Shown here piece by piece: positions 53,756-60,946 of a stretch of DNA of 64,000 nt; positions within the stretch are counted from its first letter, which is position 1; every line of letters starts with the position of its first letter. This stretch comes from Planctomycetota bacterium. GTDB lineage: Bacteria > Planctomycetota > UBA1135 > UBA2386. Below the pieces are notes generated by a model, which did no database searches, was not told the origin of the DNA, and saw only the letters and a program-made list of their open reading frames with translations. Made by a program: the position numbers and the translations under genes. Location of the stretch: the NCBI GenBank assembly GCA_965228735.1, contig OZ245838.1:3968001-4032000 (forward strand). The letters run 5' to 3'.

Positions 53756-55777
53756 TCAACGGGGGACCGCCGCGACGCGGGGGCGCTGCACGCGCTGGAA
53801 GAAGCTCCAGATCGCCTCGGTCGCCTCGAAGTCGAACGGCCGATCCCGCAGCAGACGGCCGGGTTCGACCGGGCTGCCGGGCCACGCGTGGCCGCCACCC
53901 TGCAGCGTGATCACGCGGACGGGCGTGTCGGTGAGCTTGTCGTCGTCCTCGCCCGCACCGGCGACCCGGTCGAACGTGTCGATGCGCACGCCGCTGTCCG
54001 CGTTCTCCTTGCGGTCGGGGCGCGCGAGCAGGCCGTTGCGCGCGACGTAGTAGTCGATCGCGTCCTGCACCGAAGCGTCTTCCCGCCGACCGGCGCGGCC
54101 GAGCGCGCGCTCGGGCCGGCCGCCGTCGTAGCGCACGTGCTCGTCGTCCGTGCCATGCACGAGACAGACGCCGATGGGCAACCGGCTGTCCTCGGCCGTG
54201 AAGTTCATCGCGCCGCCGACGACGGCGATGCCCGCGAACAGGTCGGCCGCTTCGCGCGCGAGGCGATGGCACATCATGCCGCCGTTGCTGTGACCGACGG
54301 CGAAGATCCGGGCCGGGTCGATCGGCGCGCGCTTCGCGACGTCACGCACGACTTCGCGCAGGAACCCGACGTCGTCGATCTTCTGGTCCTTCGCGTAGAC
54401 CGGCAGCACGCCGTCGTTCCACGTCAGCAGCTTGCCGCGCAGCCGGCCGGTCCCGTCGGGGAACGCGACGACGAAGCCCTCGCGATCGGCCAGCTCGGCG
54501 AACTGCGACGTGCGCGCCACGTGCTCACCGTTGCCGCCGCCGCCATGCAGGACGACGACGAGCGGCAGGCGCTTGCTCTGCTGCGGCTTCTGCGCCGCGC
54601 CCGAGGCTGCTTCCGGGGCCACGACCGCAGCCGGCAGGTGCAGGTGATAGCGCCGGTCGCGGCCGTCGTGCCGCAGCGTGATGGTCTCTTCGGTGCCCGC
54701 GACGAGCGGCGACTCCGCCACCTCGCGCACCACGGCCATCACCGCGAGCAGCTTGCCGAACACGCGACGCACCCGGTCCCGCACCGCGAACACGCCGCCG
54801 ATGCCGAGATCGCGATCGATCCAGGGCGTGAATCCGAACGCGCCCGGATCGGCGACCCGCGTTGCGTCATCGTCGAGCGGGAAGATCCAGGTGCCGAGCC
54901 CGTAGCGCACGTCCTCGGCCTCGACACCGACCGGGTGGACCTCGACGTAGCTGTTCACCTGATCGGTGAACATCGTGTCCACACTGTCTTCCGACAGCAC
55001 CTGCTTGCCGCCGAAGCGCCCGCCCGCGAGCAGGCACTGCACGAACTTCTCGTAGTCGGCGAGCGACGACACCGCGCCGCCCGCGACCCACGGCAACGCG
55101 TGCGTGCCAGGATCACCCGCGATCGGATACAACCCGCCGAACGCGGTCGCCTGCAGCCCGAGCGGCTCGGCGATGCGCGTCTTGAACAGCTCGTGCCACG
55201 ACTTGCCGGTCGCGCGCTCCGCCGCGACCGCGGCGACCTGGAAGGTCACGCCGCCGTAGCGGAAGCTGCTGCCCGGCTCGAAGCGCAGCGGCGCGTCGGC
55301 CACCGCCTCGGCGAACTTGTCCGTGCCCCAACCGCGCATGCGACCGCCGAGCCGCGCAGCGAAGCCTGCCGTGCACGACAGGCACTGCCGCAACGTGAGG
55401 TCGTCCTTGTCGTCGCGCCGCAGTTCTTCGACGTAGCGCGCGACCGGCAGATCGAGATCGAGCACTCCTTCGTCGACGAGCGCCATGATCGTCGCGACGG
55501 TCAGCCACTTGCTCGCCGACGCGATCGGAATCACCGAGCCCGCGCCGAGGTTGCCGTGCTCACTGCGATGCACGAGGCCGTTCTCGCGCAGCACCGCGAG
55601 GCTCGCGCCATCGAGCCGCAACGCGTGCACGACCGTGTCGCCGGCCGCAGTGAGCGGCTCGAGTTGCGGTGGCGCGGCCGGCCGGCCGGCGATCGGGTTG
55701 CCGACGACCTGGGCCGAGACGTTCGCCGCCGCAGCGGCGATGGCGACCAGCGAAGCGAACGACAGGTAGCAGCGCAT
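53756..55777 (-). CDS. Beta-lactamase-family serine hydrolase fused to an LpqC/PHB-depolymerase-like esterase
   Basis: SxxK (ASASKW) and F.Y motifs; LHGGGG, DDVGF, GHSNGG (GxSxG), HGT.D, GGHAWPG. Confidence 0.88.
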   Translation of the reverse strand: MRCYLSFASLVAIAAAAANVSAQVVGNPIAGRPAAPPQLEPLTAAGDTVVHALRLDGASLAVLRENGLVHRSEHGNLGAGSVIPIASASKWLTVATIMALVDEGVLDLDLPVARYVEELRRDDKDDLTLRQCLSCTAGFAARLGGRMRGWGTDKFAEAVADAPLRFEPGSSFRYGGVTFQVAAVAAERATGKSWHELFKTRIAEPLGLQATAFGGLYPIAGDPGTHALPWVAGGAVSSLADYEKFVQCLLAGGRFGGKQVLSEDSVDTMFTDQVNSYVEVHPVGVEAEDVRYGLGTWIFPLDDDATRVADPGAFGFTPWIDRDLGIGGVFAVRDRVRRVFGKLLAVMAVVREVAESPLVAGTEETITLRHDGRDRRYHLHLPAAVVAPEAASGAAQKPQQSKRLPLVVVLHGGGGNGEHVARTSQFAELADREGFVVAFPDGTGRLRGKLLTWNDGVLPVYAKDQKIDDVGFLREVVRDVAKRAPIDPARIFAVGHSNGGMMCHRLAREAADLFAGIAVVGGAMNFTAEDSRLPIGVCLVHGTDDEHVRYDGGRPERALGRAGRREDASVQDAIDYYVARNGLLARPDRKENADSGVRIDTFDRVAGAGEDDDKLTDTPVRVITLQGGGHAWPGSPVEPGRLLRDRPFDFEATEAIWSFFQRVQRPRVAAVPR

Positions 55778-55900
55778 GTTCGGTGTTATCGGCCACAGCT
55801 CCCGCGGGGACGGAGCGATTCCGGGATTCCGCCGGACCGGGCTACAGAGCGCCGAAAACGGCCCGCAACGCCTTCCGCCAGCTCGCGCTGAGTTGCCATC

Positions 55901-56026
55901 ATGACGAACTCACTCCGCCGTCTCATGCGCCCGATCCTGCTGATCCTGGTGGCCTCGAGCTTTGCGGCCTGCCACTTCCACCATCACGGCTTCGGCCGCT
56001 GCGCGCCGATCCGGCATTGCCGCTAA
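55901..56026 (+). CDS. 41-aa His/Cys-rich putative lipopeptide (not in ORF track)
   Basis: MTNSLRRLMRPILLILVASSFAA-CHFHHHGFGRCAPIRHCR*; basic N-region, hydrophobic core, lipobox-like FAAC. Confidence 0.6.
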   Translation: MTNSLRRLMRPILLILVASSFAACHFHHHGFGRCAPIRHCR

Positions 56027-56106
56027 CCGGCAATGCCGCTCTCGGGCATTGCCGCTCCGCTAACCGGCAATGCCGGTATCCGGCATTGCCGCGATCTGGC
56101 ATTGCT
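56013..56106. repeat. Array of six GGCA(T/A)TGC(C/T) units, mostly alternating in orientation
   Basis: Units start at 56013, 56029, 56045, 56066, 56082, 56098 (spacing 16, 16, 21, 16, 16). Confidence 0.85.
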
Positions 56107-56136
56107 GCCGATCTGGCACAGCGCCAGACTGGGCGC

Positions 56137-56358
56137 ATGCACATCTCCATCGAGTACTGCGTCGTTTGAAACTACGAACCGAAGGCGGCCAGTCTGGCTG
56201 CCGCGATTCGCGACCAGCACCCGGGCGCCGACGTCCAGATCATTCCCGGCGGCAGAGGTGACTTCATCGTCAAGGCCGGCGACCGGCTGCTCTGGGACAA
56301 GAACGGCAGGGACTCGGACTTCCCGCCGCACGAACGCATTCTCGAGCAGCTGGCGTGA
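56137..56358 (+). CDS. Rdx (SelW/SelT/SelH-like) selenoprotein, 73 aa, CxxU
   Basis: MHISIEYCVV-U-NYEPKAASLAAAI..IPGGRGDFIV..LLWDK..FP; in-frame TGA at 56167-56169. Confidence 0.92.
56175..56210 (+). promoter_or_regulatory. Bacterial SECIS-like hairpin
   Basis: GGCGGCCA-GUC-UGGCUGCC (56184-56202) plus lower stem CGAACCG/CGAUUCG; loop 22 nt after the UGA. Confidence 0.75.
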
Positions 56359-56399
56359 GCCGCCCCGCGGGCACCGCAGGTCGAACGCCGCCCCCGCCA

Positions 56400-57128
56400 T
56401 CAGCGCGGTTTCTCGAACGTGATGAAGTAGTTCTCGGCGAGCCCGTCGATCGCGGCCTCACCGACGAAGCGGAGACCCGCGGCCTCGACCTCCGCGATGA
56501 CGGTCGCCTTGCCGCAGCGCACGTGGCCGAGGATCCACTCGCGGCTCTCGCCCGGGATACGCTCGAAGTCGACGATGACGAAGCGACCCCCGGGGCGCAG
56601 GGCGCGGTGGATCGAAGCGAGCGTCGAACGCGGATACTCGAAGTGATGGTACGTGTCACAGGTGAACACGACGTCGACGCTGGCCGGCGGCAGATTGACG
56701 TCACGCTCGGTGCACAAGACGGGCTCGACCTGCGACAGTCCGCGGGTTCGCACCCGCTCCCGCAGCCGTTCGACGAACTTCTCGGCGATCTCGACCGCGT
56801 AGACCTTGCCCGTTGCCGTCACATCGCGGGCGAAGAAGTCGACGAAGATTCCCGTGCCCGCGCCGACGTCGGCGACCGCCATACCGGGCTGCAGACCAAC
56901 GGCGCGGGCGATCCGGCTGCGGTGGGCGAACACCTCGCGGCTCTCCGTCTCGAAACGCTTCACGTAGCGGTCGACGTCGAGCTCGGGGTCGAGGAAGTTG
57001 TCGTTGATGCCGGGCTTGACGCTCGCCTCGGCCCCGCCGGCGATCACCTCACGCGAGCCACCCGCAGACTCGCACGAGCCGAAGAACGCGAACACGAGGA
57101 CGGTCGACGCAGGCAGGAGCTGGCGCAT
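56400..57128 (-). CDS. Class I SAM-dependent methyltransferase with a signal/lipoprotein-like N-terminus
   Basis: VADVGAGTG, VYAVEI, TYHHFE, ALRPGG. Confidence 0.9.
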   Translation of the reverse strand: MRQLLPASTVLVFAFFGSCESAGGSREVIAGGAEASVKPGINDNFLDPELDVDRYVKRFETESREVFAHRSRIARAVGLQPGMAVADVGAGTGIFVDFFARDVTATGKVYAVEIAEKFVERLRERVRTRGLSQVEPVLCTERDVNLPPASVDVVFTCDTYHHFEYPRSTLASIHRALRPGGRFVIVDFERIPGESREWILGHVRCGKATVIAEVEAAGLRFVGEAAIDGLAENYFITFEKPR

Positions 57129-58125
57129 GACGGGTAACCTACCGCCCGCGGACCGCGTCGTCATCGTCACGCCCGCGGCGCGCGGCAACTGGTCGGGCAA
57201 CCGCGTCACCGCCGTGCGCTGGGCGGGGTTGCTGCGCCAGCTCGGGATCCGCGTGCGCATCGTGACGGAGTGGCGGGCGGGCGACGACGCGCGCGACGCC
57301 GGCGAGCGCGTCGCGCTGTTCGCGGTGCATGCGAAGAAGTCGGCCGCGAGCGTCATCGCGTTTGCCAAAGCGCTCCCGGAAGCCCCGATCGTCGTGCTGC
57401 TCGCCGGCACCGACATCTATCCGAGGTTCGAACCCGACGCGGCAACGCTCACGGCGCTCGAGGCCGCGAGCGCGCTGATCGCGCTGCAGCCGCTCGCTCG
57501 TGACGTCGTGCCGCCCCACCTGCGCGACCGGGTGCGAACGGTCTGGCAGTCGGCGACAGCGGTCGTCGTCGAACCCCGTCAGGACGGTGAGTTCGCCGCG
57601 TGCGTGCTCGCACACCTGCGGCCCGTGAAGGACCCGCTGCTGCCGTTCGCCGCGTTGCGTGATCTGCCGCCGAGCCTGCCGGTGCGCGTGACGGTCGCCG
57701 GGCGCGCGATGACCGACGAGCTCGCGACGCTCGCCCGGCTCGCGACCGAGTCCGATCCGCGCGCGACCTGGCTCGGTCCGCTGCGTCGCCCCGCCGCCAA
57801 GGCGCTGCTCGCGCAGAGCGACCTCTGCATCGTCCCGTCGACGAGCGAGGGCGGTGCGAACGTGATCTCCGAGGCGATCGCCGCCGGCACTCCGATCGCC
57901 GCAACGCGAATCCCCGGCAACACCGGGCTGCTCGGCGACGACTGGCCGGCGCTCTTCGAACCGGGCGATGCGACCGCGCTCGCCGGGCTGCTCCAGCGGT
58001 GCGCGACCGACCCGTCGTTCTTCCAGGCTCTCGTCGAACGGACGGCCGCGCTGCAGCCGCAGGTCACGCCGGCGCGTGAGCGCGAGACGCTCGCCGATCT
58101 GCTCACCGAACTGTTCCCCCGGTAG
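57127..58125 (+). CDS. senB: Selenosugar synthase SenB-like glycosyltransferase (TIGR04348-type)
   Basis: IVTPA..SGNRVTA.RWA, AVHAKKS, LAGTDIY, HLRPVKDP, SEGGANV.SEA..G.P, GN.GLLG.DW. Confidence 0.85.
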   Translation: MTGNLPPADRVVIVTPAARGNWSGNRVTAVRWAGLLRQLGIRVRIVTEWRAGDDARDAGERVALFAVHAKKSAASVIAFAKALPEAPIVVLLAGTDIYPRFEPDAATLTALEAASALIALQPLARDVVPPHLRDRVRTVWQSATAVVVEPRQDGEFAACVLAHLRPVKDPLLPFAALRDLPPSLPVRVTVAGRAMTDELATLARLATESDPRATWLGPLRRPAAKALLAQSDLCIVPSTSEGGANVISEAIAAGTPIAATRIPGNTGLLGDDWPALFEPGDATALAGLLQRCATDPSFFQALVERTAALQPQVTPARERETLADLLTELFPR

Positions 58126-58180
58126 TCGCACAGAACTGTTGGGCGGTGACCGTCGTCGCGCGCCGCAAGCCACCAGCAGC

Positions 58181-58453
58181 ATGAACGACCCGACCCAGAC
58201 CGTTGCGCGCGACGCCCTGCGACGCCTCTCCGCCCCCCACGCCATCGCGTTCGGCAGCCGCCTCCTCGAGCGCGGCCAGGCCAAGACGCGGCCGGGCCAG
58301 ATCACGTTCCGCGAGTTCCTCGGCGTCGCGCGCGAGCTCGTCGCCCAGAAGCCCGAACAGTCCGCGATCTACCTCGCCGCCCTCGTGGCCCTCGACATGC
58401 ACACCGACGACAGCATCCTCTCCGCGCGGGCGGAGCCGCCGTCGACCAACTGA
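58181..58453 (+). CDS. Small hypothetical protein
   Basis: 90-aa ORF with host-like codon usage filling the gap after senB. Confidence 0.55.
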   Translation: MNDPTQTVARDALRRLSAPHAIAFGSRLLERGQAKTRPGQITFREFLGVARELVAQKPEQSAIYLAALVALDMHTDDSILSARAEPPSTN

Positions 58454-58476
58454 CGCCCGCGCGGTACGGTAGGGCC

Positions 58477-59451
58477 GTGGCGGAATCCACGAAGGCCCCG
58501 GTTCGCGCGCACGCCCCGCGACGGTTGGACGTCCCGCTGCTCGCCGGGATCGCGCTCGGCATGCTCTGCGGCGGTGTCGCCATGCCGGCACTCGAGTTCG
58601 AGTACCTGTTCGGAGGCGAGTCGTTCTCCGTCCTGAGCGGCATCTGGGGCTTCGCGACGTCGGGGAACCTGCTGCTGGCAGTGCTCCTGTTCGCGTTCTC
58701 CGTCCTCTTCCCGGTCGCCAAGCTCGTCGCGATCCTCGGGCTGTGGTTCGTGCCGACGCGCCGGGCGACGCGTCGCGAACTCGTCGAGTGGCTCGAGATG
58801 CTCGGCAAGTGGTCCCTGCTCGACGCGTTCGTGATCACCGTCATCATCGGTGCGGTGCAGCTCGGCATCCTCGCGGAGGCAGCCGCCCAGCCGGGCGTAT
58901 ACCTCTACCTCACAGCCATCGTGCTCTCACTCGTCGCGACGGCGCTCCTGCGCAACGTCGCCGGGATCGATGGCGAAGAACGCGCCCGGCGCCTGCACCT
59001 GCCCGGCTTGCTGATCACGATTCCGGCCGCATCGTTGTTCGCGGCCGGTCTGTCGACGCCGCTGATCGAAGTCGAGAAGGGCTGGTTCTGGAGCAACGAG
59101 TATTCGCTCCTCGACGGCATCGGCGAGCTCTTCGCCCGCGGCGACTGGGGCCTCGCGACCGCGCTCCTCGGCTTCGTCGTCGTCGTACCCGGTGTCCGCT
59201 TCCTCGCCCTGATCGTGCTGCGGGCGCTGCGAACGAAGGACACCCGCCTGACCTCTCCCCTGCGCATGTTGGATCGCTGGTCGATGGTCGAGGTCTTCGT
59301 GCTCGCGCTGCTGGTCGTGTTCACGAAACTGAGTTCGCTCGCGACGCCGACACCGCGGCTCGGCATGTGGCTCCTGATGGGTTCGGCCGCCCTGACGTTC
59401 GTCGACTCGATCGTGCTCCACCGTGGCTGGCGTCGACAGCAGTCGACGTGA
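58477..59451 (+). CDS. Paraquat-inducible protein A family (two PqiA domains)
   Basis: FSVLFPVAK..LGKWSLLDAF and LDRWSMVEVFV duplicated motifs. Confidence 0.85.
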   Translation: MAESTKAPVRAHAPRRLDVPLLAGIALGMLCGGVAMPALEFEYLFGGESFSVLSGIWGFATSGNLLLAVLLFAFSVLFPVAKLVAILGLWFVPTRRATRRELVEWLEMLGKWSLLDAFVITVIIGAVQLGILAEAAAQPGVYLYLTAIVLSLVATALLRNVAGIDGEERARRLHLPGLLITIPAASLFAAGLSTPLIEVEKGWFWSNEYSLLDGIGELFARGDWGLATALLGFVVVVPGVRFLALIVLRALRTKDTRLTSPLRMLDRWSMVEVFVLALLVVFTKLSSLATPTPRLGMWLLMGSAALTFVDSIVLHRGWRRQQST

Positions 59452-59470
59452 CCGCGCCAACGCAAATAGA

Positions 59471-60946
59471 TCACGCGATGAGTTCGGGGACCGGATCGGC
59501 GCCTTCGGTGCCGACGAGGCGCTGGTCGAGACCCGCGTAGAAGTAGGCGAGGCGGTTGGGGTCCAGTCCGAGCTGCTGCAGGATCGTCGCGTGCAGGTGC
59601 TTGACGTGCAGCGGCCGCTCGACGGCGGCGTTGCCGAGTTCGTCCGTCGTGCCGAGCGAGAAGCCGCCTTTGATGCCGCCGCCGGCGAGCCACATCGTGA
59701 AGCCCTTGCTGTCGTGGTCGCGACCGGTGCCCTTCGCGTACTCGGCGGTCGGCTGGCGGCCGAACTCGCCGCCCCAGACGACGATCGTCGAGTCGAGCAG
59801 CCCCCGTTGCTTGAGGTCGGTCAGCAGCGCCGCGATCGGCTGATCCGTCGCCCCCGCGTGCTTGTTGTGGTTGATCTCGAGATCGCCGTGGGCGTCCCAG
59901 TTGTGATCATTGTGGTTGCCGCCGGAGTAGATCTGGATGAAGCGCACGCCACGTTCGACGAGTCGGCGCGCGAGCAGGCACTTCCTGCCGAAGTCCTCCG
60001 TCCGCTCGTCCTCGATGCCGTAGAGCTGCTTGATGTAGTCCGGCTCGTTGCTGATGTCGATCGCTTCGGGCGCGTGCGACTGCATGCGATAGGCGAGCTC
60101 GTAGCTCGAGATCCGCGCCGCGAGATCGGTGTCGTCGTGGCGGGGCCGCAGGTGCGCCTCGTTCTGCTCCCTCAGCGTGTCGAGCAACCGGCGCTGCTCC
60201 GACTTCGTCATGCCCTTCGGCAGCGCGAGATCGAGGATCGGCTCGCCCGTCGGGCGCAACACGGTGCCCTGGTAGACCGCGGGCATGTAGCCGCTCGACC
60301 AGTTCTTCGCGCCCGAGATCGGCCCGCCGGTCTTGTCGAGCATCACGACGAAGCCCGGCAGGTTCTCGTTCTCGCTGCCGAGTCCGTAGGTCACCCACGA
60401 GCCCATGCACGGCGCTCCCGACAGGATGCGGCCGCTGTTCATCATCAGCATCGCCGAGCCGTGCAGCGGCGAGTCGGCGTACATGCTGTGCACGAACGAG
60501 ATGTCGTCGACGCAGCGCGCGACGTGCGGGAACAGGTCGCTCACGTACTTGCCGCATTCACCGTACTGGCGGAAGTTCCACTTCGGTCCGACGACGCGGC
60601 CCTGCGCCTTGGTGCCGCCACGGCCCTTCGTCTGGATGTCGATCGTCTTGCCGTCGAGCGGGTAGAGCTTCGGCTTGTAGTCGAACGTGTCGACCTGGCT
60701 CGGCCCCCCGTACATGAACAGGAAGATCACCGCCTTGGCCTTGCCCGGATGATGTGGGCGCTTCGGCGCCATCGGGTTGCCCTGGCCCTCGTCTGGCTGC
60801 GATCCGACCCGTCGATCCAGGCGGTCGAACGCGCCGTCGCGCGACAAGAGGTCGACGAGGCCGAGCGAGCCGAAACCGGCGCCGGCCTGCCAGACGAACT
60901 CGCGGCGCGTGCGGCCGCAGAACGTGTTCTTCGCGTTCATTGCCAT
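59471..60946 (-). CDS. DUF1501 protein (Tat-like signal)
   Basis: TRREFV, KAVIFLFM.GGPSQ.DTFD.KP, LLARRLVERGVRF, WD.H, GEFGR. Confidence 0.93.
   Translation of the reverse strand: MAMNAKNTFCGRTRREFVWQAGAGFGSLGLVDLLSRDGAFDRLDRRVGSQPDEGQGNPMAPKRPHHPGKAKAVIFLFMYGGPSQVDTFDYKPKLYPLDGKTIDIQTKGRGGTKAQGRVVGPKWNFRQYGECGKYVSDLFPHVARCVDDISFVHSMYADSPLHGSAMLMMNSGRILSGAPCMGSWVTYGLGSENENLPGFVVMLDKTGGPISGAKNWSSGYMPAVYQGTVLRPTGEPILDLALPKGMTKSEQRRLLDTLREQNEAHLRPRHDDTDLAARISSYELAYRMQSHAPEAIDISNEPDYIKQLYGIEDERTEDFGRKCLLARRLVERGVRFIQIYSGGNHNDHNWDAHGDLEINHNKHAGATDQPIAALLTDLKQRGLLDSTIVVWGGEFGRQPTAEYAKGTGRDHDSKGFTMWLAGGGIKGGFSLGTTDELGNAAVERPLHVKHLHATILQQLGLDPNRLAYFYAGLDQRLVGTEGADPVPELIA

Follow-up and report, generated by a model that had tools for sequence, protein, structure and literature searches.

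The closest described counterpart of the genes considered here is the sen cluster (SenA/SenB/SenC), while the noncontiguous operon offers a second point of reference. Among 2,353 genes matching TIGR04348, 827 clustered cases are counted in the available text of Kayrouz et al. (bioRxiv 10.1101/2022.04.13.486033), so that unclustered senB genes are common. The layout of noncontiguous operons gives mutual repression and, according to the available part of PMC11034616, such operons are unpredictable without transcript data. The locus described here lies in a stretch of 64,000 nucleotides, the window, corresponding to C1:3968001-4032000 of the single-contig 7.19 Mb genome of a Planctomycetota bacterium (G000; assembly GCA_965228735.1, contig OZ245838.1). 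It holds senB, the gene of an Rdx selenoprotein (rdx) and, nested between them on the opposite strand, the gene of a methyltransferase (MT). Coordinates without “C1:” are window positions.

A first-pass annotation had reported no senA or selD and proposed that the selenosugar made by SenB is diverted to a product other than selenoneine, for example one methylated by the adjacent MT. The absence is correct within the 64-kb window and incorrect for the whole genome, which encodes selD and an egtD gene paired with a senA-like gene, and the diversion fails, since known selenoneine pathway genes are present elsewhere in the genome. Judged from the protein sequences, a selenoneine pathway made of SelD, SenB, EgtD and a SenA-like enzyme with two substituted sugar-binding residues (the Q/D form) is very probable when taken by itself. 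The wider reading, in which senB would provide the selenosugar-synthase step of this scattered pathway and its neighbours the roles proposed below, is reasonably probable.

The comparisons cover 40 relatives (with the genome itself, a set of 41), a phylum sample of 201 genomes (27 with and 174 without senB; 29 with MT), and 80 GTDB and 80 metagenome loci collected around MT; G and L labels denote genomes and loci. G039, which has a weak senB-like match on a long branch, was excluded from one tree and from the counts of genomes with both genes. Five GTDB loci that duplicate relatives were excluded from the MT tree, and such duplicates were also excluded from the count of MT export signals. A class-level search around G076 had only three genomes available.

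Genes of the selenoneine pathway

SenB is a selenosugar synthase of 332 residues, encoded at 57127..58125 (+). Its identity is upheld by the TIGR04348 hidden Markov model with 307.8 bits against a cut-off of 300, the three motifs on which it had originally been recognized (GNRVTA, HLRPVKDP and EGGANV) are all present, and SenB structures are its best matches in the PDB (E 1e-48). Compared with the V. paradoxus enzyme, for which the roles of the residues are described in the available text of PMC10891094, it retains the catalytic K158, the sugar residues N20/T23/E231, E239 and the pocket residues H58/T85/D86/R155, and it deviates at R61K, T83A and in having EGGANV for EGGAHV. The T83A change in the selenophosphate pocket is found in SenB throughout the same wider clade, and its effect is mild (PMC11237966, available text). 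The ATG at 57127 is the sole in-frame start ahead of the first conserved SenB strand in this genome. The product likely makes a 1-seleno-sugar from selenophosphate and a uridine diphosphate (UDP)-sugar. The senB of G136 (L211, near 1500) contains an in-frame TGA immediately ahead of the first conserved strand, with an in-frame ATG upstream. Other, unrelated methyltransferase-like genes flank senB in three phylum loci, those of G066 (L203), G143 (L214) and G076 (L210).

SelD is encoded at C1:122771-123694, scores 367 bits against a cut-off of 125 and contains an in-frame UGA. Its gene lies behind selA, which is over its cut-off, the pair spanning C1:121286-123802. SelB, also over its cut-off, is encoded at 1.54 Mb, and tRNA-Sec at 2.83 Mb. 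The genes of EgtD and the SenA-like protein overlap and form a pair at C1:4104515-4106754, 78 kb downstream of senB. EgtD, with a TIGR03438 score of 331 against 291, is the source of hercynine.

The SenA-like protein (C1:4105489-4106754; L034:9490-10755) has 421 residues. Its best NCBIfam model is that of SenA, NF041186, with 397 bits, and its PDB matches are SenA (E 2e-61), OvsA (2e-49) and EgtB (2e-40). With residue numbers assigned by hand from an alignment to 8RYZ, it retains the iron triad H71/H167/H171, the catalytic Y363, Y366, the hercynine residues N395/F396, and H117 and R120, where H117 is a histidine at the position of Arg87 in EgtB. A separate egtB at C1:3879467-3880672 is over its cut-off, and its product does not have H117, R120 or Y363. 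The gene of a PhnD-like substrate-binding protein overlaps and precedes this egtB (C1:3878754-3880672); sen clusters carry a putative selenate transporter (Kayrouz et al., available text). In a tree, the SenA-like protein groups with SenA proteins encoded next to senB, apart from EgtB.

All of the genes that the first-pass annotation had listed for a genome-wide search, selD/selA/selB/selC and egtB/senA/egtD, were thus located, senA as a senA-like gene. It had also named a senA/senC pair elsewhere among the findings that would speak against a new route, and half of this case has emerged, in that a senA-like gene and selD are encoded elsewhere. No new route is needed for senB, because the senA-like gene with egtD, and selD, are present elsewhere in the genome. 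An orphan senB was considered for this genome and rejected in view of its selD, selA, egtD and SenA-like gene. The sen genes are distributed over three sites, with separations of 78 kb and of over 3 Mb, beyond the 5-kb distance that defines clustering.

Among the 41 genomes, all have selD, 27 have a senB match and 16 have the SenA signature, and all 16 also have senB. A senA-type gene is found in 9 of the 11 genomes with MT nested at senB (that of G008 is cut by a contig end); the remaining two are G043, with zero senA-type matches, and G044, with EgtB types only. In G005, rdx, MT, senB and senA stand in one block.

Nine relatives have senB with no senA found: G016 (L012), G018 (L022), G020 (L029), G024 (L028), G028 (L015), G029 (L014), G030 (L031), G036 (L016) and G009 (L032). 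G020 and G028 among them are assemblies of 8 contigs, 91-94% complete. No EgtB/SenA-type match at E 1e-60 occurs in G016, G024, G028, G029, G030, G036 or G009, and a DinB search of five senA-less genomes gave no match identified as EgtB/SenA-type, the matches not being examined further. Such genomes are candidates for a true orphan senB. The neighbours of the senA-less senB loci include no common partner.

Antisense nesting of MT

MT is a class I S-adenosylmethionine (SAM)-dependent methyltransferase of 242 residues with a predicted lipoprotein signal, encoded at 56400..57128 (-) and nested antisense between rdx and senB. A single CATG at 57126..57129 gives both the MT start on the minus strand and the senB start on the plus strand, an arrangement common to 8 of 11 nested loci; such a 2-nt overlap is seen in 4 of 875 divergent pairs genome-wide, according to the gene calls of a home-made codon-score program, which misses genes that overlap or are low in GC. 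The putative Shine-Dalgarno-like AGGAG of senB (57115..57119, +) is antisense of MT signal-peptide codons, and similar purine runs are found in some relatives only.

The predicted leaderless promoter of MT consists of a TANNNT -10 box at 57136..57141 (-), located exactly 7 nt ahead of the MT ATG and inside senB codons 4-5. TANNNT stands 7 nt ahead of the MT ATG in all 11 nested loci, and inside senB codons 4-5 in most of them, while genome-wide it occurs at that offset in 89 of 3769 ATG genes, and the senB codon 4-5 pattern in 5 of 5087 genes. As the nested loci form one clade, the conserved MT -10 box represents, by its sequence, one event kept by selection. On the plus strand, no TANNNT between rdx and senB is conserved among the nested loci. 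Across the genome TANNNT peaks sharply 12-19 nt ahead of ATG starts (about 530 of 3769 genes), which suggests that leaderless or short-leader transcripts are frequent. The simplest reading of this arrangement is a leaderless MT transcript antisense to a rdx-senB mRNA, which would make the three genes a noncontiguous operon.

Association of MT with senB

The 11 nested MT-senB loci belong to one clade. Within the set of relatives, MT abuts senB in 7 of the 20 genomes with both genes, all from one MT clade, and the conservation of the linkage on which the first-pass annotation had made its proposal depend is therefore present, within that clade. Four other members of the senB clade (G003, G006, G017 and G018) keep rdx-senB and have an MT of another branch elsewhere. 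A beta-lactamase/esterase fusion and a 90-residue open reading frame (ORF) are as well conserved in the block as MT (10 loci).

The association also recurs outside this clade. In the phylum sample the same MT family is adjacent in 2 of 23 new senB loci: in G076, MT is co-directional with senB across a 13-nt gap, with a canonical senA 80 kb away, and in G085, where only an EgtB type was found (86% complete, 1010 contigs), MT is divergent from senB at about 245 bp and is followed by the APC permease described below. A full senA-senB-ABC-egtD operon stands 4 kb away from MT in G045, and the distance between MT and senB in the metagenome locus L227 is 3.1 kb. The nested clade, G076, G085, G045 and L227 occupy separate branches of both trees (FastTree), which amounts to five independent MT-senB juxtapositions. 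Inherited synteny was dropped as a full account of the linkage after these four further cases.

Outside the nested set, 2 of 21 genomes with both genes show adjacency against a naive expectation of 0.009 (naive P about 4e-5), and 2 MT-side loci lie near senB against an expectation of 0.07 (naive P about 3e-3); both nulls assume random gene order, ignore kinship and a shared aerobic lifestyle, and overstate the case. The other 19 of the 21 genomes keep MT and senB apart. MT is found in 11 of 27 senB genomes as compared with 18 of 174 others, an odds ratio of about 6 (about 5.8 in selD-positive genomes), with kinship ignored. The caveat of the first-pass annotation that the linkage could be chance does not hold in its plain form, the linkage being conserved in one clade and recurring in four further lineages. 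MT and senB are accordingly taken to have a real but loose functional tie.

The MT family

Members of the MT family are found in 26 of the 41 genomes of the relatives set and in 29 of 201 phylum genomes, also in other phyla, and nearly always in single copy; of the named relatives closest to MT, most are from Planctomycetota assemblies. By a crude heuristic, 92 of 104 MT loci encode a hydrophobic N-terminus (58 with a lipobox), six are fused to an N-terminal domain, two have none and four are truncated, while the same heuristic applied to senB as a control gives 6 of 49. The earlier impression that the methyltransferase looks exported is thereby extended to the whole family. The fused domain is of the BLH/DUF442 type in the one fusion that was scanned.

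The SAM motifs (GxGxG region), a DTYHHF motif, and H and R residues are invariant across the family. The structure model of MT is confident (predicted local distance difference test 97), and its closest solved structure by Foldseek is Aquifex 3DH0 (template modelling score 0.76-0.78, 26% identity). In the ESM Atlas, MT matches only generic methyltransferase clusters, and no relative of MT was found in viral contigs. The genome has zero matches over cut-off to TIGR04345 (OvoA C-terminal/OvsM-like), and with none at MT its identification as OvsM was rejected.

The commonest neighbour of MT is an APC (amino-acid) permease, present in 18 of 80 GTDB loci and 5 of 80 metagenome loci, and 8 of 10 permease genomes carry MT. 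MT-permease operons occur across phyla (L096, L109, L113, L154, L217, L227 and others), and three MT-permease loci also encode a protein-L-isoaspartate methyltransferase, which in L109 and L113 begins with a signal-like stretch. One possible role of the permease would be to provide methyltransferases outside the cytoplasm with SAM or with their substrate. It was not found in any of the seven nested-MT genomes of the relatives set, the own genome included. A requirement of MT for either permease or senB, as hinted by the 14 of 15 permease-free MT genomes with senB among the relatives, did not hold up in the phylum sample and was rejected: of its 18 MT genomes that lack senB, 12 are also without a permease match.

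A selD match is missing from four MT genomes that are 99-100% complete, and a senB match from 18 of the 29 phylum MT genomes, so that at least there the family has a substrate other than a selenosugar. That it occurs in complete genomes negative for selD speaks against a methylase devoted to selenosugars. Restriction of MT to selenium users was rejected as well, selD being present in 25 of 29 MT genomes as compared with 126 of 172 (p 0.17).

Rdx and its coupling to senB

Rdx is a selenoprotein of the SelT/SelW/SelH type with 73 residues and a CxxU motif (CVVU), encoded at 56137..56358 (+) with the UGA at 56167-56169. It matches PF10262 with 54.6 bits against 22.6 and TIGR02174 with 44.5 against 34.2. 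All 42 Rdx matches in the 41 genomes have one in-frame TGA each, and the selenocysteine machinery that Rdx needs (selA, selD, selB and tRNA-Sec) is present.

A selenocysteine insertion sequence (SECIS) hairpin of 6 bp with an RGTCT loop is predicted at 56185..56201 (+), starting 18 nt past the start of the UGA. Over 11 loci, 97% of the cells of its stem are paired, as opposed to 18-68% when the stem is slid along the alignment. Covariation is non-significant (88 of 500 shuffles; one compensatory change and two mismatches), and the single-sequence fold is no better than shuffles (z -0.62). A degenerate -10-like hexamer at 56125..56130 (+), which reads TANNNT in most relatives, stands 6 nt ahead of the rdx ATG and is a predicted leaderless promoter. 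An AhpD-like ORF elsewhere in the genome, at C1:4838102 (+), has a CxY-UGA with a downstream GGTCT motif.

The gene rdx adjoins senB in 11 of the 27 loci of the relatives, all from one senB clade (support 100/99). Of 23 additional loci from the phylum, one has the same adjacency, and it is of the same family. In four relatives without the nested MT the two genes are co-directional with a gap of -4 to about 100 nt. Since rdx and senB are co-directional and abutting where MT is absent, they are likely to form one unit.

Proposed pathway and alternatives

In the scattered pathway proposed here, SelD would make selenophosphate, which SenB would couple to a UDP-sugar, EgtD would supply hercynine, and the SenA-like iron enzyme would join hercynine and the selenosugar, from which selenoneine is released. 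The selenosugar most likely goes to selenoneine because the same genome encodes SelD, SelA, SelB, tRNA-Sec and the egtD-senA-like pair; the separate EgtB likely makes ergothioneine. The rdx-senB unit is likely selenium-responsive, and Rdx would act as a selenol/thiol oxidoreductase, perhaps reducing diselenides in the pathway.

MT would not act between SenB and SenA, given the predictions that the enzyme is exported and that its gene is read from a separate leaderless antisense transcript, the overlap of which with the rdx-senB mRNA would favour alternate rather than joint expression. Outside the cytoplasm it may cap exported thiols or selenols in an accessory disposal or storage step. The five MT-senB juxtapositions, the co-occurrence and the BLH/DUF442-type fusion in six loci are the reasons for which MT is tentatively taken to be an exported sulfur/selenium methyltransferase of this kind. 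With the linkage recurring in four further lineages, MT may have an accessory role in selenium metabolism. An extension of this idea is unlikely, namely that the family as a whole consists of widespread exported sulfur/selenium methyltransferases, which in senB genomes methylate an exported selenol (selenosugar or selenoneine) to a methylselenosugar or Se-methylselenoneine, with the antisense nesting switching between making and capping.

Several points weigh against the proposed pathway and the role of MT in it. The SenA-like protein is below the NF041186 cut-off (397 against 420), its TIGR04373 scores fall on either side of the cut-off of 71 (74.4 when the genome is searched, 69.4 for the protein itself), and it has N63Q and E68D at the sugar-binding sites. 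The lack of a -10 box ahead of senB carries little weight, as only about 530 of 3769 genes have one at -19 to -12, and other sigma factors may serve senB. As to MT, the fold matches listed include no thiol or selenol methyltransferase of characterised function, a supply of SAM outside the cytoplasm would have to be assumed, and the APC permease that often accompanies the family was not found in the genome.

The two sugar-site changes bear on how closely the enzyme resembles SenA. Alanine mutants of N63 and E68 impair V. paradoxus SenA (PMC11237966, available text). N63Q/E68D occurs in 10 of 20 SenA-type rows, which form a long-branched, fully supported subclade, 8 of the 10 being encoded directly behind egtD. 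Being conservative and clade-wide, the Q/D change would lower the case for a canonical SenA and not that for an enzyme that works like SenA. The idea that Q/D SenA tracks the MT link was rejected; it follows descent, being present in G003 and G006 and absent from G005.

The alternative that survives best, though ranked below a sulfur/selenium role, treats MT as a passenger with no role in selenium metabolism, a periplasmic methyltransferase or SAM-fold binding protein working with an amino-acid permease, which landed at senB once by rearrangement. It is compatible with the selenoneine pathway, and it accounts for the permease as the commonest MT neighbour, for the equal conservation of unrelated genes in the block, and for the four genomes that keep rdx-senB with an MT of another branch elsewhere. 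A single landing is at odds with the recurrence of MT near senB in four further lineages, which both trees place on separate branches, and with the small (if overstated) P values of the two samples, and this account is considered less probable, though by no means negligible.

The second alternative retains the core of the earlier proposal: MT would Se-methylate the selenosugar of SenB, after export or as a cytoplasmic form, giving a methylselenosugar beside or instead of selenoneine. In its favour, MT adjoins senB in three arrangements (nested antisense, co-directional in G076 and divergent in G085) and lies 3-4 kb away in G045 and L227, adjacency in two of the 21 genomes far exceeds the naive value, and G016, G028 and G036 have senB and MT with no SenA/EgtB-type match. 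Against it, a senA-type gene accompanies the nested MT in 9 of 11 genomes and is also present in G076 and G045, an export signal is predicted for MT and absent from SenB, MT occurs in complete genomes negative for selD, the senA-less senB genomes G009, G024, G029 and G030 have no MT match, and 19 of 21 genomes keep the two genes apart. It is held to be improbable.

The least probable alternative, that the Q/D enzyme coupled to egtD uses another sugar donor or makes another product, so that SenB of this clade feeds a variant selenometabolite, draws on the fixed N63Q/E68D pair of the subclade, its position behind egtD, SenB T83A in the same wider clade and the score under the SenA cut-off, and has against it that all other diagnostic residues are of the SenA type, among them the Y/N/F set by which hercynine and 2'-attack are fixed (PMC11030361), that the paired changes from N to Q and from E to D resemble a compensating swap, that the effect of T83A is minor, and that the change follows the clade and not the MT link.

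An orphan senB with a route replacing selenoneine fails. What stands as real is the association of MT with senB, the nested arrangement and the variant form of SenA.

Surrounding sequence

The five features noted in the first reading (a micro-ORF, palindromes, a CxxU selenoprotein, a methyltransferase and a SenB-like glycosyltransferase) are all at their reported positions, and over 55800-58300 no letter differs in the contigs from 4 of 4 sequencing runs (three studies, the source sample possibly among them). The micro-ORF and the palindrome array, which had been counted with the selenium features, are better explained otherwise. The micro-ORF (55901..56026, +) encodes a predicted lipopeptide of 41 residues with a hydrophobic stretch, a lipobox Cys and a His-rich tail ending in HCR. 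It has zero Pfam or NCBIfam matches, and homologues occur as a syntenic neighbour in 10 of 14 related loci scanned. Small, rich in His and Cys and conserved in the clade, it is a possible metal binder. A DUF423 gene stands between the micro-ORF and rdx in several relatives.

The imperfect palindrome array (56007..56125) is a local expansion, in direct and inverted copies, of the quasi-palindromic codons with which the micro-ORF ends. It is strain-specific, not being present in G001 or G002, both genomes of the same genus, and it is the sole cluster among 53 GGCAWTGCC sites genome-wide; for these two reasons a genome-wide repeat family or a pathway element was rejected.

On the other side of senB, a hypothetical ORF of 90 residues (58181..58453, +) is co-directional with senB and conserved in the clade (10 loci). 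The fusion of a Beta-lactamase-family domain to a PHB (polyhydroxybutyrate)-depolymerase-like esterase, encoded at 53756-55777 (-), is likewise syntenic with senB in 10 loci. A scan of 55700-59600 for consensus promoters and terminators found nothing.

Comparison with known systems

The result is a corrective one, in which a senB that looked like an orphan finds its explanation in a selenoneine pathway with scattered genes. It extends this pathway, as read from genome sequence, to uncultured Planctomycetota, adds a SenA subclade with swapped sugar-binding residues, and brings in MT, an enzyme found in single copy and predicted to be exported, whose gene has come to lie beside senB on several independent occasions. 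Should MT methylate selenols, bacterial selenosugars would have a third fate, and there would be a SAM-dependent reaction outside the cytoplasm. In the literature searched, from which most subscription journals were outside the scope, no paper combines selenoneine with “Planctomyc”, none describes, at the level of the listings, MT, the rdx-senB coupling or the Q/D SenA variant, and the word methylselenosugar was not met among the papers listed for it; the available text of PMC13674229 does not mention MT, the rdx-senB coupling or the Q/D variant.

Among methyltransferases, MddH and TMT1A/B (PMC11445057, available text) share the class I UbiE-like fold with MT, the comparison being by description only. 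MddH is cytosolic and has no signal peptide, while the MT family is predicted to be exported and has the invariant DTYHHF motif. The closest solved structure, Aquifex 3DH0, carries a title that names no substrate. Rdx is an ordinary member of its family (PF10262, TIGR02174) in its CxxU motif, size and downstream hairpin, and only its coupling to senB, in one clade, is out of the ordinary.

The ovs cluster for ovoselenol, with OvsA/OvsM and SenB/C (PMC11030361, available text), is a precedent both for a methyltransferase beside senB and for separated genes. Unlike that cluster, the genome described here has no TIGR04345 match over cut-off, its iron enzyme has the Y/N/F motif of SenA, and egtD is present. 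The noncontiguous operons of PMC11034616 (available text) similarly have an opposite-strand gene inside a co-transcribed unit, which in the present case is deduced from sequence. The closest likeness is to the sen cluster, with which the genome shares a SenB with its catalytic residues, SelD, a SenA-type enzyme, EgtD and EgtB. It differs from the cluster in that the genes lie at three sites, the senA-like gene is coupled to egtD and carries N63Q/E68D, and senB is coupled to rdx with the antisense MT nested between them.

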